Notes under the pieces: model-generated | Database searches by the model: none | Seen by the model: the letters and a program-made list of their open reading frames with translations, nothing else | What the model was told of the DNA's origin: nothing | Part shown: piece by piece, positions 25,513 through 54,055 of the stretch | Layout: each line of letters opens with the position of its first letter | How positions within the stretch are numbered: position 1 is the stretch's first letter | Origin: Thermoplasmata archaeon | GTDB lineage: Archaea > Thermoplasmatota > Thermoplasmata > Lutacidiplasmatales > UBA184 | Assembly (NCBI GenBank): GCA_035504395.1 | Contig: DATJRX010000005.1 | Location: forward strand, 3,334-67,333 | Reading direction: 5' to 3' | DNA: 64,000 bases | Made by a program: the position numbers and the translations under genes

Positions 25513-25736
25513 GGGGCTCCGACCGCCCCGAGGTCACCCCGCCGTAAAAGGCAGTGGGAGCACGCCGACCCTCGGCGGAGGTCGGCGGGTCCGCGGCGCC
25601 CGAGGGGTTTCGCTCTACGCCCCGGGCGCGTCCCATCCGAGGGTCGGCCCGCTACGGCCGAGCGAACCCCGACCCAACCCTCAAGACCCCCGGCCGACCT
25701 TGCAATGGTGAGGTCGCAGGGCCTCCGGGTTCTCCA

Positions 25737-27842
25737 GTGTCGCTCCTCCGTCCGGCGGGGCCGCCCGCGGCGATCGCGACCGCGATCGGGATCGCATTCG
25801 TGCTGGTCGTGGCGCTGTTCGCCCCAACCGTCCCGGCTGGCGGGGGCGCCAGTTCCTCCCGGGAGCCGACCGGTCCCGCGTCGGGACCGCCCGACCTGTC
25901 TACGAGCGACCTCGGCACCGGCTACGACGGGAGCGCGCCGGCATCGCCGCCCGTGCGGATCTGCGGGAACGGGTCCGAGCTCGACGGTCCGACCACTCCG
26001 CCCGACGGAGCGGTGGTCCTCCCGGCCGGCGACAACGAGAACATGACCGCGAGCTACGAGCTCGCTCCCAACACGACCTACTGGCTCGCCCCGGGGGCGC
26101 ACACCCTCGGGACCGGACCGTACTCCCAGTTCCAGCCCGACTGGGGCGACACGTTCGTGGGTGGGCCGGGCGCGGTCGTCAACGGTCAGTCCCTCAACCA
26201 GTTCGCCTTCACCGCGAACCCCAACGTCGGGTCGCCGAACGTCACGATCGAGTACCTCACGATCGAGGACTTCGTCTCGGGAGAGGGAGAGGGCGTGGTC
26301 AATCAGGCGAACCAATCCGGCTGGGTCGTCGCGCACAACACCGTCGGTCCGAACGAGTTCAACTGCTCGAACCCCGGGGGAGCCGGCGTCATGCTCGGCT
26401 CGAACACCGAGGTCGAGTACAACTGTCTCGCGAGCAACGGCGAGTACGGGTTCAGCTCGTTCGGCGGGGCGACGAACATCACGCTGTCGGACAACGAGAT
26501 CGCGGACAACGATGCCCTCGGGGGCTACGACCACCCCGACAGCGCGATCCAGTGCGGCTGCTCCGGTGGCGGGAAGTTCTGGATCTCGAGCGACGTCACC
26601 ATCGAGGACAACTACATCCACGATAACGGCGACCCCGGGATCTGGGTCGACACCGACAACACGGGGTTCCTCATCGCGCACAACTTCATCGCGGACAACT
26701 ACGCGGAGGGGATCATCTACGAGATCAGCTACAATGGCCTGATTGAGAACAACACGCTCCTCGGGAACGCGATCGGCGAGGCGCCCGAGGTCGCCGGGTT
26801 CCCGGCGTCCGCGATCTACATCTCCGAGTCCGGGTTCGACGACCGGGTCGCGAACCCGTTCCACGCGACGTCGTTCGAGATCGAGTACAACGTTCTCAGC
26901 GACAACCGGGGCGGGGTCGTCATCTGGGAGAACGCGAACCGATACTGCTCGGACGGCAGCGACCAGGTCTGCACGCTGGTCGATCCGGCCGTCTATACCC
27001 TCGCGAGCTGCGCCACCCACCTGGGCGAGCGAACGCCCGTCGACTATTACGACGGCTGCCGGTGGAAGGCCCAGAACGTGACGGTGGCCCGCAACCAGTT
27101 CTCCTTCACGGCGGCCGCGCTCGGACCCCAGTGCACGGTCGACAACCTCTGCGGGGACAACGGGCTATTCAGCGACTACGGCGAGGCGCCGTACGCGGGT
27201 CCGGCGGTCCCGACGAACATCACCTTCCTCCAGCACGACCAGTTCGAGGACAACAGCTACTCCGGACCGTGGAACTTCGAGGCCTGGAGCCAGGGCAACC
27301 TCGACAACCCGGTCAACTGGACCGTCTGGCGGGCGAACGTGACCGACCGATGCAGCACGGCGGGCGAGAACGAATCGGGCACCTGCGACAGCGGCTTCGG
27401 CCAGGACTCGGGGAGCATCTTCAACGCCTCCGTCGACCCCGAGATCGAGGCGTTCACCGCCGCGCCCGCGAGCGTTCCCGTCGGACATACGAGCCTCCTG
27501 ACCGTCACCGCCGAGGGCGGGATCGGCTCGCTGTCGTTCGCCTACGTCGGGCTTCCGCCCGGGTGCGCATCGGCGAACTTGGCCGAGCTCACCTGCGCCC
27601 CGACCGCTCCGGGCGATTTCACGCCCGCGATCTTCGTCAACGACTCCGAGGATCACTCGTCCGAGGCGAGCACCTCGCTCGCGGTGACGCGCGTCGCTCC
27701 GACGCCTTCTCCTCCGGGCCACTCGAGCGAGGCGCCCGGCGACCTCCTGTTCGGACTCTGGCCCTACCTGCTCGCCGCCGGCCTGGCGCTCGTCGCGGTC
27801 GTGGCCGCTGTGGCTTGGACGGCACGTCGCCGGAAGGTCTAG
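25737..27842 (+). CDS. right-handed parallel beta-helix repeat surface protein with C-terminal TM anchor
   Basis: Multiple pectate-lyase-like turns (NNTLLGNAIG, IADNYAEGIIYEIS, IHDNGDPGIWVD, SDNEIADND). An N-terminal signal-like helix and a C-terminal TM (LWPYLLAAGLALVAVVAAVAW) plus RRRKV. The start was set at the in-frame GTG 25737 before the signal peptide; the ORF extends to 25554. Confidence 0.7.
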   Translation: MSLLRPAGPPAAIATAIGIAFVLVVALFAPTVPAGGGASSSREPTGPASGPPDLSTSDLGTGYDGSAPASPPVRICGNGSELDGPTTPPDGAVVLPAGDNENMTASYELAPNTTYWLAPGAHTLGTGPYSQFQPDWGDTFVGGPGAVVNGQSLNQFAFTANPNVGSPNVTIEYLTIEDFVSGEGEGVVNQANQSGWVVAHNTVGPNEFNCSNPGGAGVMLGSNTEVEYNCLASNGEYGFSSFGGATNITLSDNEIADNDALGGYDHPDSAIQCGCSGGGKFWISSDVTIEDNYIHDNGDPGIWVDTDNTGFLIAHNFIADNYAEGIIYEISYNGLIENNTLLGNAIGEAPEVAGFPASAIYISESGFDDRVANPFHATSFEIEYNVLSDNRGGVVIWENANRYCSDGSDQVCTLVDPAVYTLASCATHLGERTPVDYYDGCRWKAQNVTVARNQFSFTAAALGPQCTVDNLCGDNGLFSDYGEAPYAGPAVPTNITFLQHDQFEDNSYSGPWNFEAWSQGNLDNPVNWTVWRANVTDRCSTAGENESGTCDSGFGQDSGSIFNASVDPEIEAFTAAPASVPVGHTSLLTVTAEGGIGSLSFAYVGLPPGCASANLAELTCAPTAPGDFTPAIFVNDSEDHSSEASTSLAVTRVAPTPSPPGHSSEAPGDLLFGLWPYLLAAGLALVAVVAAVAWTARRRKV

Positions 27843-30297: not shown

Positions 30298-30933
30298 TCA
30301 GGGAAGGGAGATCGAGACCTCGCCCGAGTACCCGTCCACCCCGAGCACCTCGAGCGTGTGGCCCTGGCCGAACGGGGAGGTCTTCGTGCTCCCGAACTGG
30401 ATCCAGATCGTGTCCTGGTTGGACACGAGCGAGCTCGCGGTGACCCCGCCGCCGTACCGCTCCCAGGCCGTGGTCTCGAACGCCTTGTTCTTCGCGATCG
30501 TCGAGGAGGCAAGGACCGAGTTCGTCGAGCCCACGAGCGAGATCAGCGCGGAGTTCATGCTGACCGTGTGGACGCGCCCGGTCGAGTCCGTCACCTGGAA
30601 CGCGAGGTTCGAGACCTTGAGCCCGTCCGACGCCTCGTCCACCGGGATGGCGTAGCAGTAGCGGCCCTCGGCGCAGTACGTCGACGGGTGTGCGCTGCCC
30701 GACACCTGCTCGGCCGGGCCGGCGTAGAAGGAGGACTCGAGCGGCTGGGACGCTCCCGAATGGACGTCCCCGACGATGAGCACGTAGAGCACCGCGGCCA
30801 GGACGACGGTGATCGCGACCAGCAGGAGCGTCGCGATGATGGGGGCGACGGCCCGTCCCCGAGCGTGGGGCCGGGCGAGCCCCCCCGATCGGCGGCCTCG
30901 GCGTGGGCGCTCGGCTGCGGCGGTCCCGGTCAT
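30298..30933 (-). CDS. archaeal type IV pilin-like protein (class III signal peptide)
   Basis: ATG confirmed at 30931-30933. RGRAVAPIIATLLLVAITVVLAAVLYVLI matches the archaeal pilin N-terminal motif ((R/K)G-x-S/A-P-V-I...L-x-x-I-T-V). A beta-rich Ser/Thr globular domain follows. Confidence 0.7.
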   Translation of the reverse strand: MTGTAAAERPRRGRRSGGLARPHARGRAVAPIIATLLLVAITVVLAAVLYVLIVGDVHSGASQPLESSFYAGPAEQVSGSAHPSTYCAEGRYCYAIPVDEASDGLKVSNLAFQVTDSTGRVHTVSMNSALISLVGSTNSVLASSTIAKNKAFETTAWERYGGGVTASSLVSNQDTIWIQFGSTKTSPFGQGHTLEVLGVDGYSGEVSISLP

Positions 30934-31022
30934 GCCGTTGGATTGGTCCGGCCCCCATCTTATACGCTTCGATTTCGGGGATTCCGGCCCGCCCGGGAAG
31001 GGGTGCGTTCCCGGTCGCGCGC

Positions 31023-32987
31023 TCAGCCGCTCGAACGCGCCGGACGCACCAGGGGTCGCGTCGGGAGCCCATACTTTCGCAGCAGGTCCACGAACCGCGG
31101 GTCGGTGCGGATCGAGTCGAACGTGGCCGACCGGTAGTAGAGCCACAGCGTCGGATCCCCTTCGCGGTACTCCTTCTCGAGCAGGTCGAGGGCGATCGAT
31201 CCTTCGCCGAGGGCCGCGTGCAGCATCGCGAGGTGGGAGTCCGAGGTGTACGACTGGGTCTCGCCCCGGGCCGCCTCGGCGAGGATCTCGCGGGCGACCT
31301 TGGGCCGGCCGAGCACCGCGTTCAGCATGGCGTGATCGAACCGCTCGTTGTCGTCTGCCGGGGCGATCGCGACGTCGGCTTCGCGCGTCGCCTCGTCGCG
31401 GCGGCCGAGCTCGAGCAGCGTGAGGCCGAGCATCGTGTGCGGGGAGAGCGAGGTGGGTTCCCGCGCGATCCGGGCCCGGCCATGACGAACGCTCGCCTCG
31501 GGGTCGTCGGACGCCGACTCGGCCCACGCGAGGGTCCCCTCGTGCTCGCCGGCCGGGTCCAGGCGTACCGCAAGAGCCAGCTCGGCGCGCGCCTCGGCGA
31601 ACCGCTCGAGGGCGATCAGCATCAGCCCAAAGAACGTGTGCGCGTCGATGTTGCTGGGATTCAGCTCGATCGCCCGGCGGAACTCCCGCTCCGCGGTCGC
31701 CCAGTCATGATCGTACTGCATCGCGATGTTGCCGAGCGCGGCGTGGGCCTCCGCCGAGTCCGGGTCGAGCGCGAGGGCCTTCGCGGCGAGCTCGCGGGCG
31801 CGGGGGATCGCCTCCCGGAACGACAGGTGGTCGCCCGCCGCTCGCACGTAGAGGTTCGCCCACGAGGCGAACGCCTCGGCGAACTTGGGGTCGAGGCGGG
31901 TGGCGGCCTCGAACGAGCGCACCGCCTCGATGTGGTGCGCCGCGTCGAACCCGGACGAGGCGGCGAGTCCACGGAGGTAGAGGTCGTACGCCTCGAGGCT
32001 GGTGGTCGGCGGCCGGCGCGCGCGGGCCGGCTCCGACCGGGCCAGCTGCAATCGAAGCGCCTCGGCGGTCCGTTCGGCGATGTCCGACTGCACCTCGAAG
32101 ACGTCGGTGAGCTCCCGATTGTAGGTCCCGGCCCAGACATGCCGCTGGGTGCTCACGTCGATGAGCTGGAGCGTGATCCGGATCTTCTGTCCGGACTTCC
32201 GGACGCTGCCTTCGAGGACCGTGTCGACCCCGAGCTCCTGGCCGACCTGGGCGATCGACTTCGGCGCGGTCTTGTACGGCAGGATCGACGTCCGGGCGGT
32301 CACGCTGAGGCCCGGCACCTGGGAGAGGACCGCGATCAGCTCCTCCGTCAGCCCGTCGGCGAAGTACTCGTCGTGCGGATCCGGGCTGATGTTGGCGAGC
32401 GGCAGCACCGCGAGCTGGCGCCCCAACGACTCGGCCGCCATCCGACCCTCCTTGCGTACGGCCGCCCACGGGGGGACGACCCGGTACACCCCCATCGGCA
32501 CGCGGATGTTCTTGAGCGCGACGGGCGGCAGCCGGGTGAAGGTCGCCTCGAGCTTGTTCTGGATCTGGTCGTAGACCTGCTGGGTCACGCTGATCCCGCC
32601 CGGCTCGGAGAGCGGTTCCACGCGCGACGCGATGTTGACGGCATCCCCCAGCACGTCGCCGTCCGCCTGCACCACGTCCCCGACATGCAGCCCGATGCGC
32701 ACGAGGATCCGCTCGGAGGCGGGCAGCGCGGCGTTCCGCTCGTGGAGCGCTTTCTGCACGTCGAGCGCGCACTGGCCCGCGTCCAGGGCACTCTCGAACT
32801 CGATGAGGAACGCGTCCCCGACCGTCTTGATCTCGCGTCCGTGGTGGCGGGCGAAGATCGGGCGGAGCAGCGCGTTGTGCGTTTCGAGCGCCGAGAGCGC
32901 GGCGGCCTCGTCGGTCTGGGCGAGAGCCGAGTACCCCACCATGTCCGTGAACATGATGGCAGCCAAGCGGCGGTGCGAAGCGGCCAC
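31023..32987 (-). CDS. class III adenylyl/guanylyl cyclase (CHD) fused to TolB-N-like region and TPR repeats
   Basis: CHD metal-binding Asp residues in AIMFTDMVGYS and KTVGDAFL. Middle region LAVLPLANISPDPHDEYFADGLTEELI. C-terminal TPR-like helices. Start chosen at the GTG 24-30 nt downstream of the TTTATTT element; the ORF extends to 33119. Confidence 0.8.
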   Translation of the reverse strand: MAASHRRLAAIMFTDMVGYSALAQTDEAAALSALETHNALLRPIFARHHGREIKTVGDAFLIEFESALDAGQCALDVQKALHERNAALPASERILVRIGLHVGDVVQADGDVLGDAVNIASRVEPLSEPGGISVTQQVYDQIQNKLEATFTRLPPVALKNIRVPMGVYRVVPPWAAVRKEGRMAAESLGRQLAVLPLANISPDPHDEYFADGLTEELIAVLSQVPGLSVTARTSILPYKTAPKSIAQVGQELGVDTVLEGSVRKSGQKIRITLQLIDVSTQRHVWAGTYNRELTDVFEVQSDIAERTAEALRLQLARSEPARARRPPTTSLEAYDLYLRGLAASSGFDAAHHIEAVRSFEAATRLDPKFAEAFASWANLYVRAAGDHLSFREAIPRARELAAKALALDPDSAEAHAALGNIAMQYDHDWATAEREFRRAIELNPSNIDAHTFFGLMLIALERFAEARAELALAVRLDPAGEHEGTLAWAESASDDPEASVRHGRARIAREPTSLSPHTMLGLTLLELGRRDEATREADVAIAPADDNERFDHAMLNAVLGRPKVAREILAEAARGETQSYTSDSHLAMLHAALGEGSIALDLLEKEYREGDPTLWLYYRSATFDSIRTDPRFVDLLRKYGLPTRPLVRPARSSG

Positions 32988-33006
32988 GATCCCCGGACGG
33001 CGCTCC

Positions 33007-33025
33007 GGCGAAATAAACGCTCGCC
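33007..33025. promoter_or_regulatory. GGCGA-AATAAACGC-TCGCC palindromic TATA-like element between divergent cyclase genes
   Basis: 5-bp inverted arms flank an AT-rich core. It sits 24-30 nt upstream of the candidate GTG start (32987) of the minus-strand cyclase. Confidence 0.4.
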
Positions 33026-33128
33026 GGGATGCTGAAACGGGGCGGGACCCGGCCGTCCGGCCGGCGCGGGCTCCGGTCGCCCGGGGGAGGTCGTCGCCCC
33101 GCGGGAGACGTCGGCGCACGCACGCCTA

Positions 33129-35147
33129 ATGAGGCCGGGTTCGGTCCCCCGATCCGTGGCGCGGGAGTCCCGTCGGCTCGCCGCGATCATGTTCACCGAC
33201 CTCGTGGGGTTCACGTCCCTCGGCCAGCGCAACGAGGGAGAGGCGCTCCGCCTCCGTCGGGAGCATCAGGAGATCGTCCGACCCCTCCTCGCGGCGCACG
33301 GCGGTCGGGAGGTCAAGACGACCGGCGATGGGTTCCTCGTCGAGTTCCCGAGCGCCGTGGAGTCGGTCCGCTGCGCGGTCGAGATCCAGGGCGCCGTCGG
33401 GCGACGGAACGCGCTCGCCGGATCCGCAGAGCCGATCCGGCTCCGCATCGGCATCCACGTGGGCGACGTCGTGGACGACGCCGGCGACATCGTCGGCGAC
33501 GCGGTGAACGTCGCGTCCCGGATCGAACCGCTCGCGGAACCGGGCGGCGTCTGCGTCTCGGGCTCGGTGTACGACCAGGTGCGCAACAAGCTCGAGGTGC
33601 CGCTCGAGCGGGTCGGCACGCGCGAGCTGAAGCACGTGGAGTTCCCGGTCGACATCTACCGGGTCCGGCTCGGCGAGACGTTCGAGCCGCGAGAGCGGGT
33701 CGTCGAGCCGGGACCGGACGCGCGCCCGCGCCTGGCCGTGCTTCCGATGGCCAACTTGAGCCCGGATACCGCGGACGATTACTTCGCGGACGGGCTCACC
33801 GAGGAACTGATCTCCCAGACCTCGAGGATCCCGGACCTCCGCGTCATCGCCCGGACCTCGGTACTGCAGTACAAGGGGTCGACGAAGCCGCTCCGCACCG
33901 TGGCCCACGAGCTCGGCGTGGGGCTCGCGCTCGAGGGGTCGGTGCGCAAGTCCGGCGACCGCCTCCGCGTGACCGTCCAGCTGGTCGACGCGCGCTCCGA
34001 GGAACATCTCTGGTCGTCGCGCTACGACCGGCCGCTCGGCGACATCTTCGCGATCCAGGACGATATCGCGCAGCAGGTCGCCGCCTCGATGGCCGCCCAC
34101 ATGACCGGGCGGGGCGCTGCTCCGGGGCGCCGGGTCCTCCCGGCGGTCCGCGACACGACGGACCTTCGGGCGTACACCGCCTACCTGCACGGCCGCAAGC
34201 TCCTCTCCGAGAAGGATTCGGAGACGACCGTGGCGCGGGCCGTCGAACTGTTCGAGGAAGCGGAGCGCATCGATCCGAATTTCGCGCGCGCCCGCGTCGC
34301 CCGGGCCGAGGCCCTGATGTGGCTCATGAACGAGGGCGCGGTCCCGTTGCTCGACGGCGAGAAGGAGGTGCGCACGGAGCTCGCCCGGGCCATCGAGCTC
34401 GACGCCTCGCTGGCGGAGGCGCACGCCGCGCTCGCCGGCCTCCTCCTCGGGACCGACGAGCTCGCGGCGTCCGAGCGCGAGAGCCGCCGGGCGATGGAGC
34501 TCAACCCGAACGTCATCGACTCGTACCGGTGGCTCGCCCAGATCGCGGCGGGTGATGGGCGCCTGGACGAGGCGGCGCGGCTGCTCGAGACCGCGGTCCA
34601 GATCGACCCCCTCGACATCAACATCCTCGCCTTCCTCGGCCGGATCTACTTCTACGCCGGGCACATCGATCGCGCGCTCGAGCATTGGAAGCGCACGGAG
34701 ACGCTCGTGCCGTACCGGACGCAAGCACACCGGGCGGAGTACGCGCTCTCGATCGGGGACCTCGACGCGGCGCAGACCTACGTCCGCGACCTGGAGCGGC
34801 TGCGACCGGAGAGCGTGTGGACCGAGGTCTACCGCGGGGCGCTCGCGGCCCGCCGCGGCCGTCCGGAGGAGACGCGCGCCGCGATCGAGCGCCTCGAACG
34901 CCGGGGCCAGACGGGCGAGATGACCGCGCTGTTCACCGGCGCGCTCTACCACGCCCTCGGGGAGGACGACGCGTTCGTGCGCTGCATGGAGGAAGCGTTC
35001 GACCAACACTCGTTGCCGTTCCTGGAGCTCCTGTACTCGCCCCTCTACGAGCGCGCCCGCGCCGACCCCCGGATCCGCGCCCTGATCGAGCGCCAGCGGG
35101 CGCTGCGCACGGCCGAGGGGGATACCCCCCCGCGCCGAACGCCTTAA
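33129..35147 (+). CDS. class III adenylyl/guanylyl cyclase-TolB-N-like-TPR protein (paralog of 31023..32987, divergent)
   Basis: AIMFTDLVGFTS, KTTGDGFLVEF and LAVLPMANLSPDTADDYFADGLTEELI, then C-terminal TPRs. About 45% identity to the neighbour across the cyclase domain. Confidence 0.85.
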   Translation: MRPGSVPRSVARESRRLAAIMFTDLVGFTSLGQRNEGEALRLRREHQEIVRPLLAAHGGREVKTTGDGFLVEFPSAVESVRCAVEIQGAVGRRNALAGSAEPIRLRIGIHVGDVVDDAGDIVGDAVNVASRIEPLAEPGGVCVSGSVYDQVRNKLEVPLERVGTRELKHVEFPVDIYRVRLGETFEPRERVVEPGPDARPRLAVLPMANLSPDTADDYFADGLTEELISQTSRIPDLRVIARTSVLQYKGSTKPLRTVAHELGVGLALEGSVRKSGDRLRVTVQLVDARSEEHLWSSRYDRPLGDIFAIQDDIAQQVAASMAAHMTGRGAAPGRRVLPAVRDTTDLRAYTAYLHGRKLLSEKDSETTVARAVELFEEAERIDPNFARARVARAEALMWLMNEGAVPLLDGEKEVRTELARAIELDASLAEAHAALAGLLLGTDELAASERESRRAMELNPNVIDSYRWLAQIAAGDGRLDEAARLLETAVQIDPLDINILAFLGRIYFYAGHIDRALEHWKRTETLVPYRTQAHRAEYALSIGDLDAAQTYVRDLERLRPESVWTEVYRGALAARRGRPEETRAAIERLERRGQTGEMTALFTGALYHALGEDDAFVRCMEEAFDQHSLPFLELLYSPLYERARADPRIRALIERQRALRTAEGDTPPRRTP

Positions 35148-45662: not shown

Positions 45663-46328
45663 ATGCCCGACCACTACACGCAGCTGCTGGAGTGGCGACG
45701 CACCGAGGCGTCCGTGCGGGGCCTCGCGAAGCTCCCGCACGACTTCTACCGGACCACGACGGCCTACCTCACCGAGATGCGGGCGAGCTACGAGGCCGAG
45801 CTCCGGGAGAACCCATCGAGCCGCAAGGGCGAGATCCTCCGGCAGACCTACCAGCGGGCGACGCAGGTCGCGCGGGACGTGATCGAGGCGCGCGCGCAGA
45901 AGGTGATGACCGCGGCGTTCCAGGCGTCGATCGGGGGCGCGAAGGAGCTGCCGAACGCCCTCCCCGAGGAGCGCGCGATCTTCGACGCGATGCTCGGGAC
46001 GCTCTCCGACCATCGTCGCGCGTCCGCGCCGTATCTCGAGCCGCACGCGCCCGCCGCCGCGGGCCCCGCGCCCCGCAAGCCCGAGCCGGCGGCCGTCGCC
46101 GCCCCGGCGCCCCCGCCGGGCGCCCCGAGCGCGCGGCCCCCCCGGGCGCCGGGACCGTCGACCTGGGTGCGCATCCTGCAGGGGGGCCGCCGCGTCGAGC
46201 TCGGTTCCGAGACGATCGATCTCCGGACGGACGATGTGCTCTCCCTGCCCGCCGAGCAGGCGAAGCTCCTGATCGACGCGAAGGTCGCCGAACCGGTGCA
46301 GGCGTCCGCGCCCGTCCCCGCTACGTAG
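45663..46328 (+). CDS. putative GINS subunit (Gins51/Gins15-like) DNA replication protein
   Basis: N-terminal LLEWRRTE..L..LPHDFYRTTTAYLTEMR resembles the archaeal Gins51 A-domain. A small C-terminal beta domain follows an Ala/Pro-rich linker. TATA-like TTCCTATAC lies about 37 nt upstream. The assignment is tentative. Confidence 0.45.
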   Translation: MPDHYTQLLEWRRTEASVRGLAKLPHDFYRTTTAYLTEMRASYEAELRENPSSRKGEILRQTYQRATQVARDVIEARAQKVMTAAFQASIGGAKELPNALPEERAIFDAMLGTLSDHRRASAPYLEPHAPAAAGPAPRKPEPAAVAAPAPPPGAPSARPPRAPGPSTWVRILQGGRRVELGSETIDLRTDDVLSLPAEQAKLLIDAKVAEPVQASAPVPAT

Positions 46329-47316
46329 CCGGCGGGCGCGCCGCGAGCTCGAGCACCCGGAACCGCTCGAAGCCGAACAGCAGATTCTTCGCGGCGAGCC
46401 GCAGGCGGACCTCGGCTTCCGCCGAGCCGGCGCTCTTCAGCGCCGCGTCGAGCAGCGCGGGGAATCCCCACTCCCCGAGCGCCTCGGCCTGGGAGCGGAA
46501 CGCGATCTCGGTGAGGCCGCTGCCCCGGGCGACCGCCCGGACCCGGGAGAAGTTCACGAACATCGATAGGTCCGAGGTGCCGGGCGCCTCGAACGGGGCC
46601 TCGAGCGACCGATGCCCCCGGACGGCGGCGAGGGTGCCGCGGGGATGCGCCGCGAGCAGCTCGGGTTCCTCGAGGCCGTAGTCGATAAGGATCGCGACCC
46701 CCGCGGCGAGGTGATCGCCGATCTCGCGCACGGCCGCCTCCGCCCCCGCGGAGACCTCGACGACCGTCCCCGCCTCGAGGTGGATCGGCAGCGCGGGACC
46801 GGGCACGGCCCGGTCCATCGGCCGGTCCGCGGGCCCGAGGCCGTCCCCTCGCAGTTCCACGCCGAGCTCGCGCCAGTAGCTCCCGTCCCAGAGGAGCCGC
46901 CGGGCGGGTTGCGCATCGAGGTACTCGTTGGCGATCACGGCGCCGGCGAACGGCCCGTCGGCTCCGAGCGACGGGAGTCGCACCACCCGAACCGTTGCGG
47001 AGGTCGCGCGGATCCGATGCGCCGCCTCCGCCGCCCGGGCCTCCGAGCGCTCGACGAGGGCGTACTCGAGCTCCGCCTCCTCGGGCCGAAGGGCGGAGAC
47101 GATCCCGGCGGCGAGGGTGCCATCGCCCGGCCCGAGCTCGACGATGCGGAACGGGCGGGCGGCGATCGACGCGCGAACCGCCCCGATCCGCTGGGCGAGC
47201 GACCGCGCGAACAGCGGCGAGACGTGGGCCGCCGTGTAGTAGTCGCCCATCGGCCCGAGCGGCGAGCGGGCCGCCGAGTAGTAGCCCGCGACCGGGTCGT
47301 AGAGGGCGATCTCCAT
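46321..47316 (-). CDS. DUF185/MidA-family (NDUFAF7-like) SAM-dependent methyltransferase
   Basis: FMEIALYDPVAGYY, IVELGPGDGTLAA and ANEYLDAQP are hallmarks of DUF185. ATG confirmed at 47314-47316; a possible GTG extension reaches 47427. Confidence 0.75.
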   Translation of the reverse strand: MEIALYDPVAGYYSAARSPLGPMGDYYTAAHVSPLFARSLAQRIGAVRASIAARPFRIVELGPGDGTLAAGIVSALRPEEAELEYALVERSEARAAEAAHRIRATSATVRVVRLPSLGADGPFAGAVIANEYLDAQPARRLLWDGSYWRELGVELRGDGLGPADRPMDRAVPGPALPIHLEAGTVVEVSAGAEAAVREIGDHLAAGVAILIDYGLEEPELLAAHPRGTLAAVRGHRSLEAPFEAPGTSDLSMFVNFSRVRAVARGSGLTEIAFRSQAEALGEWGFPALLDAALKSAGSAEAEVRLRLAAKNLLFGFERFRVLELAARPPAT

Positions 47317-47444
47317 GAACCGGTCGAACGGGACGAAGCCCGAACCGTCCTGGGCCGCGCGCAGCCGCGCGCGGATCCGGTCCGTCCGCGACGCGCGGTC
47401 CGGGTCCGGGGAAGGGACGGCCGCCACGCGCGTCCGCTCCCCGA

Positions 47445-48227
47445 TCAGCCGATGTAGCCCAGGTCCTCGCGGGCCGCCGGGCCCGGCGAGGTCGTGCCCT
47501 CGGAGTGCTGCTCGGCCTCGTGGATCTTCTGGGCGATGCGGTCGATCTCCTGGGCCTTGGCCTGGAGCGCCGCGAAGTCGATCGGAAGCTGGAGCGCCTG
47601 GGTCAGGACCTTGAGGACCGCTTCCGCGGCCCGGGGGTCGACGAAGTAGCCGCTCGTCTCGCCCATGAGGCAGACCCCCTCCATGCCGAACAGCCGGCCG
47701 AGCCCGAGGAAGAGGCCGCTCGCGCCGATGAGGCCGCCGCCCGGGTCGTTCCGCGAGAAGACGACGTTGAACTTCTTCATCGCCTCGACCTGGGCCGGCG
47801 CGGTGGCCGCGCCGAGGACCCGCGGGGCGTCGACGATCCGGCCCTGTGCGAACCCGGCGAGCGTGAAGACGGTGCGGACGCCGAGGCCGCGGCAGAAGTC
47901 GAGCACGCGCTCGGTGATCTCGTACTGGCCCTCGGGGCTGATCCCCTGGTAGTCGCCCCCCAGGATCAGGAGGTCGTGCTCGGCGGTCGCGGGCGCCCTC
48001 CAGTACGCGAGCTCGTTCGAGACCAGGCGGATGATGCCGGTCTCGGAGACGTACACCTGCGGCGGGAAGAACTTCGAGAAGATCGTGGCGAGCGGCTTCG
48101 CGGCGAGCTGGTCGCGGAGGTAGTCGGCGGCGAGCTTTCCGACGTTGCCGACGCCCGGCAGTCCCTCGATCAGGATCGGGTCGCGCAGCGCGACCTTCTC
48201 CAGCGGCCGGATGACGACGTCCTCCAC
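47445..48227 (-). CDS. PAC2-family proteasome assembly chaperone-like protein
   Basis: LIEGLPGVGNVGKLAADYL ... LLILGGDYQ is the PAC2/DUF75 pattern. Confidence 0.7.
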   Translation of the reverse strand: MEDVVIRPLEKVALRDPILIEGLPGVGNVGKLAADYLRDQLAAKPLATIFSKFFPPQVYVSETGIIRLVSNELAYWRAPATAEHDLLILGGDYQGISPEGQYEITERVLDFCRGLGVRTVFTLAGFAQGRIVDAPRVLGAATAPAQVEAMKKFNVVFSRNDPGGGLIGASGLFLGLGRLFGMEGVCLMGETSGYFVDPRAAEAVLKVLTQALQLPIDFAALQAKAQEIDRIAQKIHEAEQHSEGTTSPGPAAREDLGYIG

Positions 48228-48290
48228 GGTGGCTCCTCCGTTCCGAGCGGACCGGCGAGGATAAAGCCTCGCTGGCGGCCGGGTAGGCCG

Positions 48291-49055
48291 CTATCCCGGG
48301 CTCCGCTCGCCCGGTCCGGTCGCCCAGCCGTTCTCCGCTACGTGGAGGCGGACGATCCGGCCGAGATCGGGGCGGTTCGCGACCTTCTGGATCTGCAGCT
48401 CGTGCTCGTAGCGCTCGCCTCGCGGCTCGCTCTTCAGCTCGAAGACGAGATCCGAGAGGTCGTGGAGGAGGCCGTACATCGCCCGGTCGTGGCCGATCGA
48501 GTGCGCGGTGAGCAGCGCCTGGCCGCCGATCGTGCGGCACCGGTGCCGGATCTGGCGGGCGACGGTCGTCACGTCGTGGGGCTCGAGGACCTCGAGGAAG
48601 AAGTCGACCGAGTCGAGCACCAGCCGGAACGGGTGGTCGATCTCGGCGAGGTCGCTCAGCATGCGGTTCGTGAGGCTGAACGATTTCGGCGGCGTCGCCT
48701 GGTTGCGCGCGACGACCAGCTCGTCGAGCGAGATCCCCTTCTCGCGCGCCCGGGCGATGTCGAGCCCGTGGACGAGCACGCGCTCGTAGTACTCGTCGGC
48801 GAGGTTCACCACCTTGATCTCGGACGGGTCCCAGCCGAAGTCGGTGAACGCCTTCGTGACGTCCTCGGTCCGCTCGAACGTCGTGTAGAACAGGACCGGG
48901 ACGCTGCCGACGCCGGCGTGCGCGAACTGCTTGGCGAGCAGCGGCGCCCCCGAGCCGGACGAGCCGGTGAGGAGCGCGAGCCATCCCGGAGGGAGCGCCG
49001 GCCACAGCGCGCCGTCGATCTCGGGCATCCCGAGGATGCGCTCGTCGTCCCCCAC
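48291..49055 (-). CDS. KaiC-like RecA-superfamily protein with degenerate Walker A (GSSGSGAP)
   Basis: KaiC-like features FGWD and LVLDSVDFF (Walker B) are present, but the P-loop reads LLTGSSGSGAPLL and lacks Lys-Thr/Ser. Confidence 0.65.
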   Translation of the reverse strand: MGDDERILGMPEIDGALWPALPPGWLALLTGSSGSGAPLLAKQFAHAGVGSVPVLFYTTFERTEDVTKAFTDFGWDPSEIKVVNLADEYYERVLVHGLDIARAREKGISLDELVVARNQATPPKSFSLTNRMLSDLAEIDHPFRLVLDSVDFFLEVLEPHDVTTVARQIRHRCRTIGGQALLTAHSIGHDRAMYGLLHDLSDLVFELKSEPRGERYEHELQIQKVANRPDLGRIVRLHVAENGWATGPGERSPG

Positions 49056-49057
49056 GG

Positions 49058-49636
49058 CTAGCGGCCCCGCCCGACGTCGATCGTCTCGTCGACCAGGAGG
49101 TTCAGCATCTGCTCGATCCCCGTCGCCTCCTCGTCCGAGGTCTCGAGGACGACCGCGAGCACGTTGCGGCTCTTCAGGTTCGTCAGGAAGATGTGGAAGA
49201 ACTCGTTGAGGAGGTCGACCGGGTTGTGAATCGCGAGGGCGTTCACGCTGTCGATCACCACGATCGAGCGGGGGTGCGGGAACTTCCGCAGCAGGTAGTC
49301 GACCCGCAGCATGATCTCCTCGAGCGCCCGCGGGGTCTCGATGTACGTCGAGTTCGGGAGCGGGTTCGAGTAGTTCATCATGATGTGGCTGATCGCGTCG
49401 ACGAACGAGATCCGGTCCGCCGGCACGTCGAGCGCCTGCGCGAGCGACCAGACGAACGCGGCCGGGTTCGTCACGGTGACGTAGATCGTGTGCGCGTTGG
49501 TCTCGCTGCCGACGTCCCGCAACGTCGCGTTCAGGACCGCGAAGTAGTGGTCCGCGTACTCGCGGGGATCCAGCTTGAGCGCGACCGCGCTCCCGCCGGG
49601 CAACGACCGCAGCCGGTCCCCGATGTCCGCCGGCAT
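49058..49636 (-). CDS. KaiC-like RecA-superfamily protein lacking the P-loop
   Basis: Aligns with the neighbouring KaiC-like genes (IYVTVTNPAAF...ADRISFVDAIS...IVVIDSVNALAI), but the Walker A segment is replaced by LDPREYADHY. Confidence 0.55.
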   Translation of the reverse strand: MPADIGDRLRSLPGGSAVALKLDPREYADHYFAVLNATLRDVGSETNAHTIYVTVTNPAAFVWSLAQALDVPADRISFVDAISHIMMNYSNPLPNSTYIETPRALEEIMLRVDYLLRKFPHPRSIVVIDSVNALAIHNPVDLLNEFFHIFLTNLKSRNVLAVVLETSDEEATGIEQMLNLLVDETIDVGRGR

Positions 49637-49645
49637 CGAGCGACC

Positions 49646-50449
49646 CTACTCCTCCGGGTTCTGGCCCTTGAGGTGCGGCGCCATCAACATCCCGATCGGC
49701 GTCAGCTCGATGACGTACTGGGCCCGCGAGTGCGTCGTCCCGCGCATCTTCACGATCTGGAGCACGCGCAGGATGTCGCCCTGCCGCCGGGTGTTCCAGA
49801 GGAGGATCACGCCGTCGACGATCGCTTCCTCGACCCCGTGGAGCGAGTAGCGGCCGGCCTGCGGTCCGATCTCCGACACGAGGAGCGAGGTGCAGCCGAG
49901 CTCGGTCAGCGTCTGGCCGAGGCGGAGCATGAAGTCCCGGATCCGCTCGTCCCGACGGATCCGGTAGCAGACCGACGTCAGCGAGTCGAGGACGAGCCGC
50001 TTCACGCCGAGCGAGGCGACCAGGTCCCGGATCGTCCGGATCAGGATGTCGATCTCGTCGGCCGTGAGCTCCTCGTGCTCGAGGCCGAGCTTGTCGTAGA
50101 TCGCGGGGAGATCGACGAACACGAGCGAGCCGATGTCGATCAGGTCCCGCCGGAAGAACTCGAACGTCGAGAGGTTCTGGATCAGCTTCGCGGACGCCTC
50201 GGTCACGGAGAGGAAGAGCGAACGCTCCCCCCGTTCCGCGCCGCGGACCAGGAACTCGAGGCTCAGCGTCGTTTTCCCCGTCCCGACCGACCCGGCGACC
50301 AGGACCATGTTCCCGCGCGGGATCCCGCCGCCCAGCACGTTGTCGAGGCCCTCGATGCCGGTGGCGCAGCGCTCCAGCACCGCGGCCGGCGCGAGCAGCG
50401 GCCGGGGGGGACCGTCGGGCGGGGCGGCCGTCTCCGGCGGAGCCTCCAT
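49646..50449 (-). CDS. KaiC-like RecA-superfamily ATPase with intact Walker A/B
   Basis: TGIEGLDNVLGGGIPRGNMVLVAGSVGTGKTTLSLEF (Walker A) and RLVLDSLTSV (Walker B). Internal M (MEAPPET) taken as the start; the ORF extends to 50620. Confidence 0.8.
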   Translation of the reverse strand: MEAPPETAAPPDGPPRPLLAPAAVLERCATGIEGLDNVLGGGIPRGNMVLVAGSVGTGKTTLSLEFLVRGAERGERSLFLSVTEASAKLIQNLSTFEFFRRDLIDIGSLVFVDLPAIYDKLGLEHEELTADEIDILIRTIRDLVASLGVKRLVLDSLTSVCYRIRRDERIRDFMLRLGQTLTELGCTSLLVSEIGPQAGRYSLHGVEEAIVDGVILLWNTRRQGDILRVLQIVKMRGTTHSRAQYVIELTPIGMLMAPHLKGQNPEE

Positions 50450-50489: not shown

Positions 50490-52940
50490 CTATCCGCGGT
50501 CGGGACCGTCGTCCGACCGCCCCTCCGCCCCCGGCTCCGGGGGCCCGACGAGGCGCGCGGGATCGATCCACCAGCACGCGCCCCGCGCGTCGCGACCGGT
50601 CGAGAGGAGCGCCCCTTCACGGCGGAGCGCGTCGCCCGTCGCCCGCACCGCCGCGCCGGTCGGGTCGACCTCGTGGCGCAGCTCGGCCAGCGAGATCTTC
50701 AGCGGACGGTCCCGCGGAGCCGCGCGCGCGCGCTCCGCGAGGGCTCGCCGCACGCGATCCTCGGGCGCGTCCGCCGACGCGGCGGAGCCGGGGGCCAGGA
50801 CGCCAGGGTCGGCCGCCGCCGTCGCGCCGGGGGATGGGGCCGGAGCGGGGGGCCCACCCGCCGGAGCCGGTCGGCGGGCGGTGCGGAGTCGGAGGACCTC
50901 CTGTCCCTTCCCGAGCAGAACCACGGCCTCTCCGCGGGGCAACGACACGAGGGCTCCCGGCTCGGCCCCCCGGACCGAACGCGCGAGCTCGCGCGCCTCC
51001 CCGGGGGAACCCCGGAACGCGACGAAGTCCGCGACGTTCGTCCAGATCGCCTCGGCGACGCCCTCCGGCAGCGATCCGATCGACTGCGTGGCGAGCACGA
51101 CGTGCACGTTGCGACGGCGGGCGAGGCGCAGCATTTCGGCGAGGCTCTCGTGACCGAACCACTGCGCTTCGTCGAGCACGACCCAGGTCTTCGGGGTCCC
51201 GGGGCGTGCCAGCAGCTCGTTCCAGACCAGGGCGAGGTACACCGACATGAGGTAGCGCGCGGTCGACTCTCCGACGTCGCGCGCGTCTCCGGCGATCAGG
51301 ACGACCCGGCCCTCACCGACCAGGTCCTCGGCCCAGAGCTCAGGGGACCGCGCGCACAGCATGCGAACGAGCGTGGGGCTGCGGACCACCTCGTGGAGGA
51401 GGCGCCGGGCGCCATCGGCGTCCTCGGGACGGTGTCGGATGCGGTCGGCGAGCTCCCGAACGGCCTCCATCGCCTCGGGCGGCACTCCGCGAGTTCCGCG
51501 GCCCTCGGCGGCGAGCAGCGCGTGCGCGTCGACGAGCGTTCCGTCGGGCATCGCCGCCGCCGCCCGAAGGGCCCTCGTCAGCATCTCGTCGAGGCGGGGT
51601 CCCCAGAACGCCCCGCTGGAATACCGGCCTTCCCGCACGAGGCGCAGGGCGTGCACCAGGTCGTTGACCTGGCGCTCGGCCCGGCCTCCGTCCGCGGCGT
51701 CGCGGACCAACGAGCGGCCGAGCGCGTTCAGCCCCCCCACCGACCGAGTGTCGATCCAGGTCAGCCGGTCCCGCGCGGCCGGGGGGAGGTCGTCCCGCAC
51801 GGCCCGCGCGGTCTCCCCGAGCGGGTCGAGCAGCACCAGGCCTCCCCGGCTCGCGGCTCGCCGGGCGAGCACGACGAGCAGGGAACTCTTGCCCATCCCC
51901 GTCTCCCCCACGATCGCCAGGTGCCGACCCTGGTGAGGCTCGGAGGGAGCGCGCACGATCTGGCCGTCCGAGGTCCGCCCGAGCGGAAGGCCGTCGGCCT
52001 CGGAGAGGTCGGCGCCGAGTCCGGGGCATCGATCCGTGGGGAACGTCGCGAGCAGGTCGACCTCGGGAAGGGGGAACGCCGGACCTCGGCGGCCATGCCA
52101 GGGTCGGAATCGGGAGAACCGGAGCCCGTTCCCTTCGGCGGTCCGGGTGGCCGACTCCCAGGAGCGCGCGGAGGCCCGGAGCTCGAGCGGGGACCGCGCC
52201 GGGTCGGTGCGCCGAAGCCGAAGCCGGCTCTCCCACACCGGGCGCAGGTCCGGCGCCGGCTCGGGCCGGGCCATCGACGGGCGGGGGATCGGGCGGGTCC
52301 CGGGCGGCAGCGTTCGGTGATCGATCGAACCGACCGGTTCCGGTCTCGACGGGCTGGCCGCCAGCCGCGTCGGCCGGCTCGACCACGCGAGCTCGAGTCC
52401 CGGCGGCAGGAGCGACGCCTGCTGCACGACGGCGTCCATCAGCGCGACGACCCCGGCCGACCGGCCGATCAGCGGCTCGGGCCAGGCGCGGGCAGGGGTC
52501 GCGAACCACTCCCACGGACCCGGCGCATCCCGCTCACCTGACGGCGCCGGTTTCCACTGGCCGGGGGGATACACCGGCAGCAGCACCCGGATCCACCATC
52601 GGGCGGCCGCGGCGTCGCCGGGCCGGAAGGTGAGGCCGGCGGGTCGGCCGGACCGGATCCTCCACTCGAACGAGACCCCCGCCCCGTGCGCGGCCCGAAC
52701 GGCGAGCGCGAGCTCCCGCGGATACGGTTCGCGGTCCGACGGCCGGCGATCGTCCGAGGGCAGCGATCGGAACCGCCAGGCCGGGACCGATGTCGTGCGA
52801 GGACCGGTGTCCGGGTCCACGCCGCTCGCTGACGGCCGGCTCGAAGAATCCGTCGGGGTGGGCGGACGGTGAAGCGTGCCCATCGCCACCCTCAAGTGGC
52901 CGCCCGCGTGGGACCGGCTTCGGGTCCGGTCGCATGTCAT
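50490..52940 (-). CDS. HerA/FtsK-like (DUF87) P-loop ATPase with long N-terminal extension
   Basis: HLAIVGETGMGKSS (Walker A), LLDPLGE (HerA DPxGE motif), VVLDEAQWF (Walker B) and VLATQS (sensor). Coordinates are the maximal ORF. The true start must be internal, because the first ATG would overlap the divergent DRG gene; candidates are M168 at 52439 and M223 at 52274. Confidence 0.65.
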   Translation of the reverse strand: MTCDRTRSRSHAGGHLRVAMGTLHRPPTPTDSSSRPSASGVDPDTGPRTTSVPAWRFRSLPSDDRRPSDREPYPRELALAVRAAHGAGVSFEWRIRSGRPAGLTFRPGDAAAARWWIRVLLPVYPPGQWKPAPSGERDAPGPWEWFATPARAWPEPLIGRSAGVVALMDAVVQQASLLPPGLELAWSSRPTRLAASPSRPEPVGSIDHRTLPPGTRPIPRPSMARPEPAPDLRPVWESRLRLRRTDPARSPLELRASARSWESATRTAEGNGLRFSRFRPWHGRRGPAFPLPEVDLLATFPTDRCPGLGADLSEADGLPLGRTSDGQIVRAPSEPHQGRHLAIVGETGMGKSSLLVVLARRAASRGGLVLLDPLGETARAVRDDLPPAARDRLTWIDTRSVGGLNALGRSLVRDAADGGRAERQVNDLVHALRLVREGRYSSGAFWGPRLDEMLTRALRAAAAMPDGTLVDAHALLAAEGRGTRGVPPEAMEAVRELADRIRHRPEDADGARRLLHEVVRSPTLVRMLCARSPELWAEDLVGEGRVVLIAGDARDVGESTARYLMSVYLALVWNELLARPGTPKTWVVLDEAQWFGHESLAEMLRLARRRNVHVVLATQSIGSLPEGVAEAIWTNVADFVAFRGSPGEARELARSVRGAEPGALVSLPRGEAVVLLGKGQEVLRLRTARRPAPAGGPPAPAPSPGATAAADPGVLAPGSAASADAPEDRVRRALAERARAAPRDRPLKISLAELRHEVDPTGAAVRATGDALRREGALLSTGRDARGACWWIDPARLVGPPEPGAEGRSDDGPDRG

Positions 52941-54055
52941 CGCTCGAAGAGCAGATCACCGCGGTCGAGGACGAGATCCGGAACACCGCGTACAACAAGG
53001 CGACCAGCGGCCACATCGGGCGGCTCAAGGCGAAGCTCGCGGTGCTCCGCCTCGAGCGCGAGACCCGGGCGAAGGGGAAGGGCGGTGGGGTCGGCTACGG
53101 CGTCCGGAAGAGCGGCCACGCCACGGTCGGGCTCGTCGGGTACCCGTCGGTCGGAAAGTCGACGTTGCTCAACCGGTTGACCGCGGCGGAGAGCGAGACC
53201 GGGGCCTACGACTTCACGACGGTCTCGATCATTCCCGGGATGCTCCGCTGGGGCGGAGCCTCGATCCAGATCCTCGACATGCCCGGGCTCGTGCCGGGGG
53301 CGGCCAAGGGACGTGGTCGCGGGCGGGAGGTGCTGTCGGTCGTGCGCTCGGTCGACCTGATCCTGTTCATGATCGACCCGGAGCACACCAACCTGCGCGC
53401 CCTGGTCACGGAACTCGAGGGGGCCGGGGTCCGCATCAACGGGCGACCGCCCAAGATCGTCGTGACGAAGGCGGATCGGGGCGGGCTCACGATCTCGAGC
53501 ACCGTTCGGCTCACGCATCTCGCCGGCGGGCTCGCGAGCCAGATCGCCCGGGAGTTCGGGATGCACAACGGCTCGATCGTGTTCCGCGAGGACGCGACGG
53601 CCGACCAGCTCATCGACGTCCTCGCCGGGAATCGCGTCTACGTGCCGGCGTTGCTCTCGGTCAACAAGAGCGAGCTCCTGACGCCCGCCGACCGGGCGCG
53701 CATGGTGCTGGAGCAGCGACCCTTCGATCCGATCTTCGTCTCGGCGCGGGACCGGCTCGGCCTGGACGCGCTGGTCGACCGCATCGGCCACGCGCTGCGC
53801 TTCATCCGGGTGTACGTCAAGCCGCCCGGGCTGCCGCCCGACAAGGACGAGCCGGTGATCCTTCGGGAAGGGGACACGATCCAGTCGCTGCTCGGGCGGC
53901 TCCCCACGGACCTCGATCGGGGGTTCCGAACCGCGCTCGTGTGGGGGAAGAGCGCCCGATTCCCGGGTCAGACCGTCGGTCGGGAGCACGTCCTCGCGGA
54001 CGAGGACATCGTCACGATCATCATCGCGCGCGGGGCGGCCCGCGCAGCGGTCTAA
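52934..54055 (+). CDS. developmentally regulated GTP-binding protein (DRG/Rbg1-family Obg-like GTPase with TGS domain)
   Basis: N-terminal [38 protein letters not shown]. G1 [9 protein letters not shown], G3 DMPG, G4 TKAD. C-terminal TGS ([10 protein letters not shown]...GDTI). Confidence 0.9.
   Translation: [373 protein letters not shown]

Follow-up and report, generated by a model that had tools for sequence, protein, structure and literature searches.

Archaea encode KaiC-like proteins in large numbers, few of them with a known role; it has been proposed that these are the main signalling hubs of archaea and have inactivated KaiC domains for partners. We analysed three adjacent genes of this kind, called here K1, K2 and K3, in a 64,000-nucleotide stretch of DNA (the window) from a Thermoplasmata archaeon (contig DATJRX010000005.1, positions 3,334 to 67,333). 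The window is about 70% G+C, and its proteins have identical or nearly identical counterparts in soil and peat genomes of uncultured organisms recorded as 'Thermoplasmata archaeon', UBA184 among them. The three genes are open reading frames on the minus strand, at the coordinates that a previous inspection of the letters (the sequence-only reading) had reported, and the Walker A segments that it quoted could be read directly in the sequence. A catalytic Walker A is present only in the upstream gene, K1 (GSVGTGKTT), while the loop is deleted in K2 and reads GSSGSGAP in K3. The same reading was right that the genes are retained with a spacing close to zero, but the gaps are 9 nucleotides (nt) between K1 and K2 and 2 nt between K2 and K3, rather than 3-10 nt. 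The coordinates of the genes, their motifs and their neighbours are collected in Table 1.

K1 matched the Pfam KaiC family (PF06745) with an E value of 5.5e-56 and 190 bits, the cut-off being 26.6 bits. Among PDB chains, those of KaiC matched it with E values down to 1.8e-54; CI was the better-matching domain (117.7 bits, against 69.9 for CII), and the alignment to CI was full-length. Of the three proteins only K1 fits the pattern GxxxxGK[ST]; in about 80 orthologs its Walker A reads G(S/T/G/N)(V/C)G(T/S)GKTT, with an invariant GKTT core. K1 also has a Walker B, a catalytic Glu (in VTEAS) and a KxRG motif aligning to the 'kfrGtsh' of KaiC, of which K217, M218, R219 and G220 were invariant in an alignment of 14 genomes. 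We take KMRG to occupy the position of the K224/R226 arginine finger of KaiC CI; the roles of the catalytic Glu and of the KxRG motif, here and below, are likewise those that we presume from KaiC. On the strength of its motifs, K1 is predicted to be an active, single-domain KaiC-CI-like ATPase with every catalytic element. The likeness to circadian KaiC is thus in Walker A, Walker B, the catalytic Glu and KxRG, as in CI. In contrast, K1, K2 and K3 are all single-domain proteins without the CI-CII tandem, and the NCBIfam circ_KaiC score was 101.6 bits for a cut-off of 546. K1 presumably resembles CI, too, in having Glu-Glu where KaiC CII has the phosphosites S431/T432. No KaiA or KaiB was found in the operon, in a search that covered the operon and its neighbours in the window. 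PADLOC returned only a marginal match of K1, to mad8 (E=9.5e-4, 16.8 bits), and nothing for K2 or K3.

K3 scored 43.6 bits against PF06745, above the cut-off, and matched KaiC in the PDB at E=3e-9, aligning to CI. A profile comparison with hhalign aligned it over its full length to the K1 family (97% probability, E=1e-11). In the clade of the window, the GSGAP of its degenerate loop is near-invariant, and no ortholog there keeps the Lys. More distant orthologs retain a glycine-rich loop with a variable residue at the Lys position and usually a Glu at the Thr position (GSGIE, GAGLE, GSGME, GAGTG and, in the single case of locus L088, GSGKE). The catalytic Glu lies in TFER, and the KxRG region reads QKVANRP, with only the Lys conserved. 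An invariant AKQFA stands after the dead P-loop (48921-48935, minus strand, residues 41-45); its Lys, 5 residues past the lost Walker Lys, is conserved even in orthologs of 28-30% identity. A relocated catalytic Lys in this segment was considered and judged unlikely on helix geometry.

The score of K2 against PF06745 (23.3 bits) fell narrowly under the cut-off, and against DUF7504 it was 18.8 bits, under the Pfam threshold of 27. Some other members of the K2 family pass PF06745, among them P0126 with 30.3 bits, and relatives of K2 score from 24.5 bits (DUF7090) to 41 bits (DUF7504). By Pfam, the family sits beside DUF7504, DUF7090 and DUF835; judged from these sequence scores, K2 belongs to a sister group of the DUF7504/DUF7090 families and is not a member by the curated cut-off. 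NCBI records label it 'hypothetical protein'. The K2-family profile gave no significant match to PDB sequences, so that no relative is solved as far as sequence tells. An AlphaFold model built from an alignment of 20 diverse relatives had a predicted local distance difference test score (pLDDT) of 90.5 and a predicted template modelling score (pTM) of 0.89. With Foldseek it matched PH0284 (query TM-score, TMq, 0.70-0.72), Sso2452, KaiC, RadA and Elp456, all with probability 1.0; the Elp4 and Elp6 chains of Elp456 superposed on it at a TMq of about 0.6. In the model, strand 17-22 passes almost straight into helix 24-42, and the eight-residue P-loop is gone; hhalign sets the LDPREYAD segment found at this junction opposite the 'SGSG' of K3. 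None of the 20 diverse family members in the alignment has a P-loop. K2 also lacks the catalytic Glu (VTNP at that position) and about 60 C-terminal residues, which make up the last third of the KaiC domain and contain the KxRG hairpin with its arginine finger. D129 and S130 of its Walker-B-like segment are invariant across the family, which has motifs of its own (IYITxTxPA, FVDCIS, YVESPTMLE, DSxNxLAIHN and LSEFLH). With a KaiC/RecA fold in the AlphaFold model and its nucleotide-binding motifs lost, K2 is an inactivated KaiC-like (iKaiC) protein.

The K2 family is large. A word-index search returned 379 homologs, the top 120 of which are 80-100% identical and 191-194 residues long; K3 showed the same kind of pattern. 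A search of 1.8 billion representatives gave 425 K2-related clusters (50% identity), 66 of them at E<1e-10. Most clusters are stand-alone proteins of about 190 residues; in some, the K2-like part is the C-terminal domain of a large TPR/CARDB protein. Examples are P0165, P0166 and P0175, in which a P-loop-less domain ends proteins of 900-1800 residues with TPR/SNAP-like repeats and CARDB/NPCBM-type Ig domains. At locus L086, a 1435-residue TPR protein (L086:1-4305, minus strand) divergently adjoins the K1-K2-K3 triad. These cases suggest that TPR proteins and iKaiC domains are repeatedly linked.

The RecA/KaiC fold that the sequence-only reading had attributed to all three proteins is therefore confirmed, by Pfam for K1 and K3 and by AlphaFold and Foldseek for K2. 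The shared Walker B of the form hhhhD was also found (RLVLDS in K1, IVVIDS in K2 and RLVLDS in K3). The shared FGWD region was not: it is literal only in K3, whereas K1 has TFEFF and K2 ALDVP there.

Table 1. Genes and motifs at the K1-K2-K3 locus, with the pilin-bearing stretches of related loci
Feature	Coordinates	Strand	Description
K1	49646-50449	minus	Single-domain KaiC-like ATPase, 267 residues, predicted active
K1 Walker A GSVGTGKTT	50267-50293	minus	Residues 53-61, read in the sequence
K1 Walker B RLVLDSL	49979-49999	minus	Read in the sequence and ortholog alignment
K1 KxRG motif KMRGTTHS	49727-49750	minus	Aligns to KaiC 'kfrGtsh'
K2	49058-49636	minus	P-loop-less, truncated KaiC-fold protein of the iKaiC type, 192 residues
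K2 LDPREYAD in place of Walker A	49550-49573	minus	Residues 22-29, strand-to-helix junction
K2 Walker-B-like IVVIDSV	49244-49264	minus	Within family motif DSxNxLAIHN
K3	48291-49055	minus	Full-length KaiC-like protein with dead P-loop, 254 residues
K3 degenerate Walker A GSSGSGAP	48942-48965	minus	Residues 31-38; Lys replaced by Ala, Thr by Pro
K3 Walker B RLVLDSV	48606-48626	minus	Read in the sequence and ortholog alignment
DUF87/HerA-like ATPase	50490-52883	minus	FtsK/HerA-superfamily P-loop ATPase, 797 residues, upstream of K1
DRG-type GTPase	52934-54055	plus	Divergent from the minus-strand string
PAC2 proteasome-assembly chaperone	47445-48227	minus	Downstream of K3
Methyltransf_28	46321-47439	minus	Downstream of PAC2
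Pilin-bearing stretch	L084:6001-8531		
Pilin-bearing stretch	L086:5267-7873		
Pilin-bearing stretch	L093:7001-8213		
Pilin-bearing stretch	L091:1202-1291		

To follow the three genes across genomes we used one genome per species. A K2 relative was found in 591 species, and the best 80 loci were retrieved and searched by tblastn. The close set consists of about 80 species-level Thermoplasmata genomes, with a complete K1-K2-K3 set in 75 loci. The order DUF87/HerA-like gene, K1, K2, K3, PAC2 was found in all close loci with long enough contigs. Identity to the window was 68-89% for K1, 71-91% for K2, 46-77% for K3, 36-55% for the HerA-like protein and 65-85% for PAC2. The gap from K1 to K2 is about 1-11 nt in these loci and that from K2 to K3 mostly 2 nt. 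The motif states are fixed over the roughly 80 species: GTGKTT is invariant in K1, GSGAP near-invariant in K3, and LDPREYADHYF conserved in K2.

The ratio of nonsynonymous to synonymous substitution rates (dN/dS) was estimated by the Nei-Gojobori method (NG86) between the window and the five closest loci; dS is compressed in these GC-rich genomes, which inflates dN/dS at larger distances. It amounted to 0.09-0.13 for K1, 0.10-0.17 for K2, 0.14-0.17 for PAC2, 0.22-0.32 for K3 and 0.35-0.39 for the HerA-like gene, for which a partial alignment of 182 codons at L004 gave 0.14. The mean p-distance was lowest, among the five genes, for K2 (0.18), with 0.20 for K1 and 0.34 for K3. Pairwise distances of the HerA-like gene, K1, K2 and K3 were mutually correlated (r 0.70-0.84), and somewhat less so with those of PAC2 (r 0.61-0.73); such distance co-variation (mirror-tree) is weak evidence, with PAC2 as the single control gene. 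In profile-profile comparisons K2 matched K1 at E=1.4e-3 and K3 at E=3e-3. Each of the three genes represents an ancient orthologous family of its own, held under purifying selection.

Because the three are separate families with fixed motif states, the Walker A gradient is a static and old division of labour and not a continuing loss. The 'stepwise P-loop decay' of the sequence-only reading has accordingly to be given up: K2 and K3 each hold a fixed state, under purifying selection. Decay of pseudogene-like copies, or loss of the P-loops through sequencing or assembly error, has virtually no credence left. One long-read assembly with fragmented genes at this place, and otherwise the bare absence of Walker residues, speak for it; it is refuted by about 80 independent genomes in which these motifs and protein lengths recur, by dN/dS values well below 1, by the lack of a P-loop throughout the 425 clusters of the K2 family, and by the confident fold predicted for K2. 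Sequencing errors or frameshifts, which that reading had named as a possible cause, are excluded because the motifs and lengths recur in so many independent genomes. The long-read assembly is L002 (ENA contig_19268, 2.18 Mb), in which the DUF87 gene, K1 and K3 are fragmented, while all three are intact in the short-read contig L001, whose K2 protein is identical. The broken genes of L002 look like assembly frameshifts, and calls of pseudogenes in such assemblies deserve caution.

The distant set comprised every K2 relative with a retrievable contig (K2 27-40% identical), one of these contigs being named Methanomassiliicoccales. A K1 ortholog (35-62% identical) lies directly upstream of K2 in 9/9 distant loci in which that side is visible, from about 7 lineages, and the genes of the module often overlap by 4 nt. 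Wherever it could be seen, in the approximately 80 close genomes and these 9 loci, a K2 without Walker A had an intact KaiC-like gene directly upstream, which bears out the pairing that the sequence-only reading had raised as a possibility. K3 is directly downstream of K2 in L083, L086, L088, L090 and L094, in about 5/8 lineages. K1 and K2 thus form the core that does not vary; K3 often joins them as a third gene, and the HerA-like gene is an addition of the clade of the window.

Pilin genes are found beside the module in several of the related lineages, one of them Methanomassiliicoccales, where Pilin_N genes follow K1-K2(-K3) within 150 nt to 1.5 kb. They adjoin it in L084, L086 and L093, and a pilin-like N-terminus lies downstream in L091. 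In L084/L085 and L093, which have no K3, the Pilin_N gene comes shortly downstream of K2, and in L086 two such genes come after K1-K2-K3. Very distant K2-like (DUF7504) proteins occur in Bathyarchaeia, Geothermarchaeales and Altiarchaeota. Around a DUF7504 protein distantly related to K2, L095 (3389-12570) and also L096 contain a signalling cluster. In L095 it includes a PAS-HisKA-HATPase kinase, a response regulator, two genes for which no family match was named, a 1060-residue KaiC-KaiC-PAS-HisKA-HATPase fusion and two short KaiC-like genes.

The gene upstream of K1, present there in essentially all close genomes, encodes an FtsK/HerA-superfamily ATPase. The protein and P0406 are 100% identical, and homologs carry the name 'DUF87 domain-containing protein' at NCBI. 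It scored 31 bits for DUF87 (cut-off 23.2) and 23.9 bits for TrwB_AAD_bind (cut-off 20.5), and TraG-D_C also matched. Its Walker A is GETGMGKSS and its Walker B VVLDEAQ. Residues 300-670 of its AlphaFold model (mean pLDDT 82) matched DndH-C best, and also VirB4/TrwK, HerA and TrwB, with Foldseek E values of 1e-10 to 5e-13; these closest fold matches presumably all form hexamers. The protein has in addition an N-terminal domain peculiar to the clade (about residues 35-280) and, at residues 707-775, a small helix-strand domain near the C-terminus. Its best PADLOC match was mad8 (E=3e-19). A mobile defence island was considered for the locus and is opposed by the housekeeping synteny (Nop56/58, fibrillarin, DRG GTPase, PAC2 and L15e) kept over about 80 genomes.

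The stop codon of the DUF87 gene lies 40 nt before the start of K1, with no TATA-like element seen, on reading, between the two. On the other side of the triad, TTTAT occurs about 35 nt before the GTG start of PAC2 and is followed by GGAGG (window 48228-48290, minus strand). These elements suggest that PAC2 has a promoter and ribosome-binding site of its own, so PAC2 may be outside the KaiC operon despite its conserved adjacency. Because of the 40-nt gap without a TATA-like element and of the TTTAT box before PAC2, the transcription unit is likely DUF87-K1-K2-K3.

The wider surroundings are of the housekeeping type, with genes for a Toprim protein, L15e, fibrillarin and Nop56/58, and a scan of the window from 44 to 56 kb found no Rfam RNA family. 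Elsewhere in the window, the sole pilin-like open reading frame detected by phmmer (30298-30960, minus strand; Pilin_N, 26.3 bits) stands beside two divergent paralogs (31023-33119, minus strand, and 33129-35147, plus strand) that contain an adenylate/guanylate cyclase domain and TPR repeats. At 25554-27842 (plus strand) a 762-residue protein is encoded that combines a right-handed, NosD-like beta-helix domain with a hydrophobic anchor at its C-terminus and is probably a surface protein.

We consider it rather probable, with ample room for doubt, that the conserved operon encodes an obligate heteromeric module of the KaiC type, consisting of one ATPase and two inactivated partners. The catalytic and pseudo-ATPase partners proposed by the sequence-only reading agree with the common fold, the restriction of Walker A to K1, the spacing and the co-occurrence of K1 and K2. 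The three proteins would be translationally coupled and would assemble as a hetero-oligomer. Judging by the motifs, K1 would be the sole subunit to bind and hydrolyse ATP productively, with K2 and K3 non-catalytic. K2 and K3 could then read out or modulate the nucleotide state of K1 and so make a regulatory switch. This would be in line with the proposal, reported in the part of PMC5847659 that cites Makarova 2017, that archaeal KaiC ATPases and iKaiC domains serve as signalling hubs. In the clade of the window, the likely client of the module is the upstream FtsK/HerA/VirB4-type ATPase, putatively a hexamer, by analogy with the action of ArlH on ArlI. ArlH, itself KaiC-like, forms hexamers on the ArlI ATPase under the control of its ATP binding and autophosphorylation (bioRxiv 10.1101/2021.03.19.436134).

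Several observations weigh against this interpretation. Homologs of the HerA-like protein were found only in this Thermoplasmata clade and evolve fast, as their identities and dN/dS show, and in the distant lineages the module has no HerA-like neighbour; the gene may be a late or loose associate. The absence of K3 from L084/L085 and L093, which keep K1-K2, means that the triad is not obligatory. The fusion of K2-like domains to large TPR/CARDB proteins indicates that K2 may bind partners besides K1. Conserved order and tight spacing are also seen for genes that are merely co-regulated. Finally, the nearest pilin gene in the window is 17 kb from the triad.

The module might take the form of a mixed hexameric ring (2:2:2, for example) in which K1, K2 and K3 alternate like Elp4/5/6 or the Rad51 paralogs, with ATP sites only at K1 interfaces. 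According to PMC10018365, where it cites Glatt 2012, Elp456 is a hetero-hexameric RecA-like ring of the eukaryotic Elongator. The two cases have in common three RecA-fold paralogs, some of them without canonical ATPase signatures, and here these come in a fixed order with coupled translation predicted. K3, whose domain is full-length and which retains the conserved KxRG-region Lys, also fits a ring, as does the superposition of the K2 model on Elp456 chains. So do weak Pfam signals, PAXNEB/Elp4 for K1 (E=1.5e-3) and Elong_Iki1/Elp5 for K2 and its relatives (E=0.097 and 0.004). Still, a mixed ring is the less likely arrangement, and we think it rather improbable, because the C-terminal hairpin, which forms one interface of a ring and bears the arginine finger, is missing from K2, and because domains of the K2 type are found appended to the C-termini of large, unrelated proteins. 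For these same two reasons K2 may be attached to a ring instead of being one of its subunits. K3, moreover, is dispensable in some lineages, and PH0284 fits K2 better than Elp456 does. Unlike in Elp456, K1 keeps a perfect P-loop and K2 is truncated, and a ring at this locus is a proposal. Membership in the Elp4/5/6 families was rejected: the PAXNEB and Elong_Iki1 scores (18.1 and 12.6 bits) are far under the cut-offs (28 and 22.5), and structures of the KaiC family are the better fit. The locus showed no Elp3 or Elp1/Elp2 context. A more detailed version, to which we likewise give little weight, is that an asymmetric K1-K2-K3 ring or half-ring, with ATP only at the K1 interfaces, gates the HerA/VirB4-like translocase, or a pilus-type machine in other lineages.

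It is unlikely that the three genes are independent paralogs, forming separate homo-oligomers with separate functions and left adjacent by an old tandem duplication and shared regulation. Archaeal genomes do contain many KaiC paralogs (PMC4858521, PMC5847659), K3 has been lost in some lineages, and the rates of the three genes are unequal, as their mean p-distances indicate. The adjacency of K1 and K2, however, with a gap of 1-11 nt or a 4-nt overlap, is kept in every visible case, over K2 identities from about 30% to 100%. A K2 without P-loop and arginine finger has no obvious function alone, and yet it is as constrained as K1.

A third alternative, which we regard as very doubtful, is a recombination mediator of the RadA/Rad51-paralog type, like Rad55-Rad57, Shu or aRadC, acting with the HerA-like translocase in DNA repair. 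Like the present proteins, those complexes are heteromeric sets of RecA-fold proteins in which some members lack ATPase motifs. NCBI names K3 a 'RAD55 family ATPase', and Sso2452, which we take to be a RadA paralog (aRadC), is among the top structural matches of K2 and was its top Foldseek match. The adjoining ATPase is of the HerA/FtsK superfamily, with HerA and DndH among its fold matches, and a Toprim-domain gene is nearby. The sequences are, nonetheless, clearly of the KaiC family, the match of K1 to RadA or RecA structures (E about 2e-4) being far weaker than that to KaiC (E=1.8e-54). NCBIfam RadA and RadB models gave 25-34 bits for cut-offs of 172-361 (RadB 33.7 bits for a cut-off of 278 and RadA 25.3 for 259), and Pfam Rad51 gave 14.3 for a cut-off of 22. 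The related lineages have pilin or signalling neighbours instead of repair genes and no HerA-like gene, and no DNA-repair context is conserved over lineages.

The obligate heteromeric module is closest to the iKaiC systems, with which it shares a KaiC-family ATPase (K1) and KaiC folds with destroyed ATPase motifs (K2 and K3) in one predicted operon; as in those systems, distant K2-like proteins cluster with histidine kinases, response regulators and KaiC-histidine kinase fusions. A point in common with ArlH is that KaiC families are known from the type IV pilus loci of archaea (PMC4858521); in related lineages, pilin genes flank the module. In other respects ArlH differs. The NCBIfam ArlH model gave 39.3 bits for K1 and 25.8 for K3 against a cut-off of 215, the partner ATPase here belongs to the FtsK/HerA/VirB4 superfamily and not to the ArlI/PilB type, and the neighbours at the locus are DUF87, PAC2 and Methyltransf_28, with no arl genes. 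ArlH, furthermore, has an intact Walker A and acts as one species, with no dead paralogs. For archaea, inactivated KaiC domains and KaiC paralogs in tandem have been described before. The fixed order K1-K2-K3, the graded motif states and the link to DUF87 were not found in the literature searched, although the arCOG neighbourhoods of the 2017 survey, which lay outside that search, may list them; the conserved module and its DUF87 partner appear to be uncharacterised in that literature.

The locus is a clean and strongly conserved minimal case, in which a single live ATPase is accompanied by two dead domains, one truncated and one full-length. It shows that tandem paralogs can be without Walker residues as a long-standing, selected condition and not through decay, which matters for annotation, K2 being still a 'hypothetical protein'. 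If a mixed ring did exist, it would be a prokaryotic counterpart of the eukaryotic RecA-paralog rings with one live and several dead members (Elp456 and the Rad51 paralogs). The small, soluble-looking and presumably translationally coupled proteins would make a practical system for studying the interplay of pseudo-ATPase and active RecA-fold subunits, and such a system could reveal whether modules of this kind control FtsK/HerA-type or pilus-type machines.

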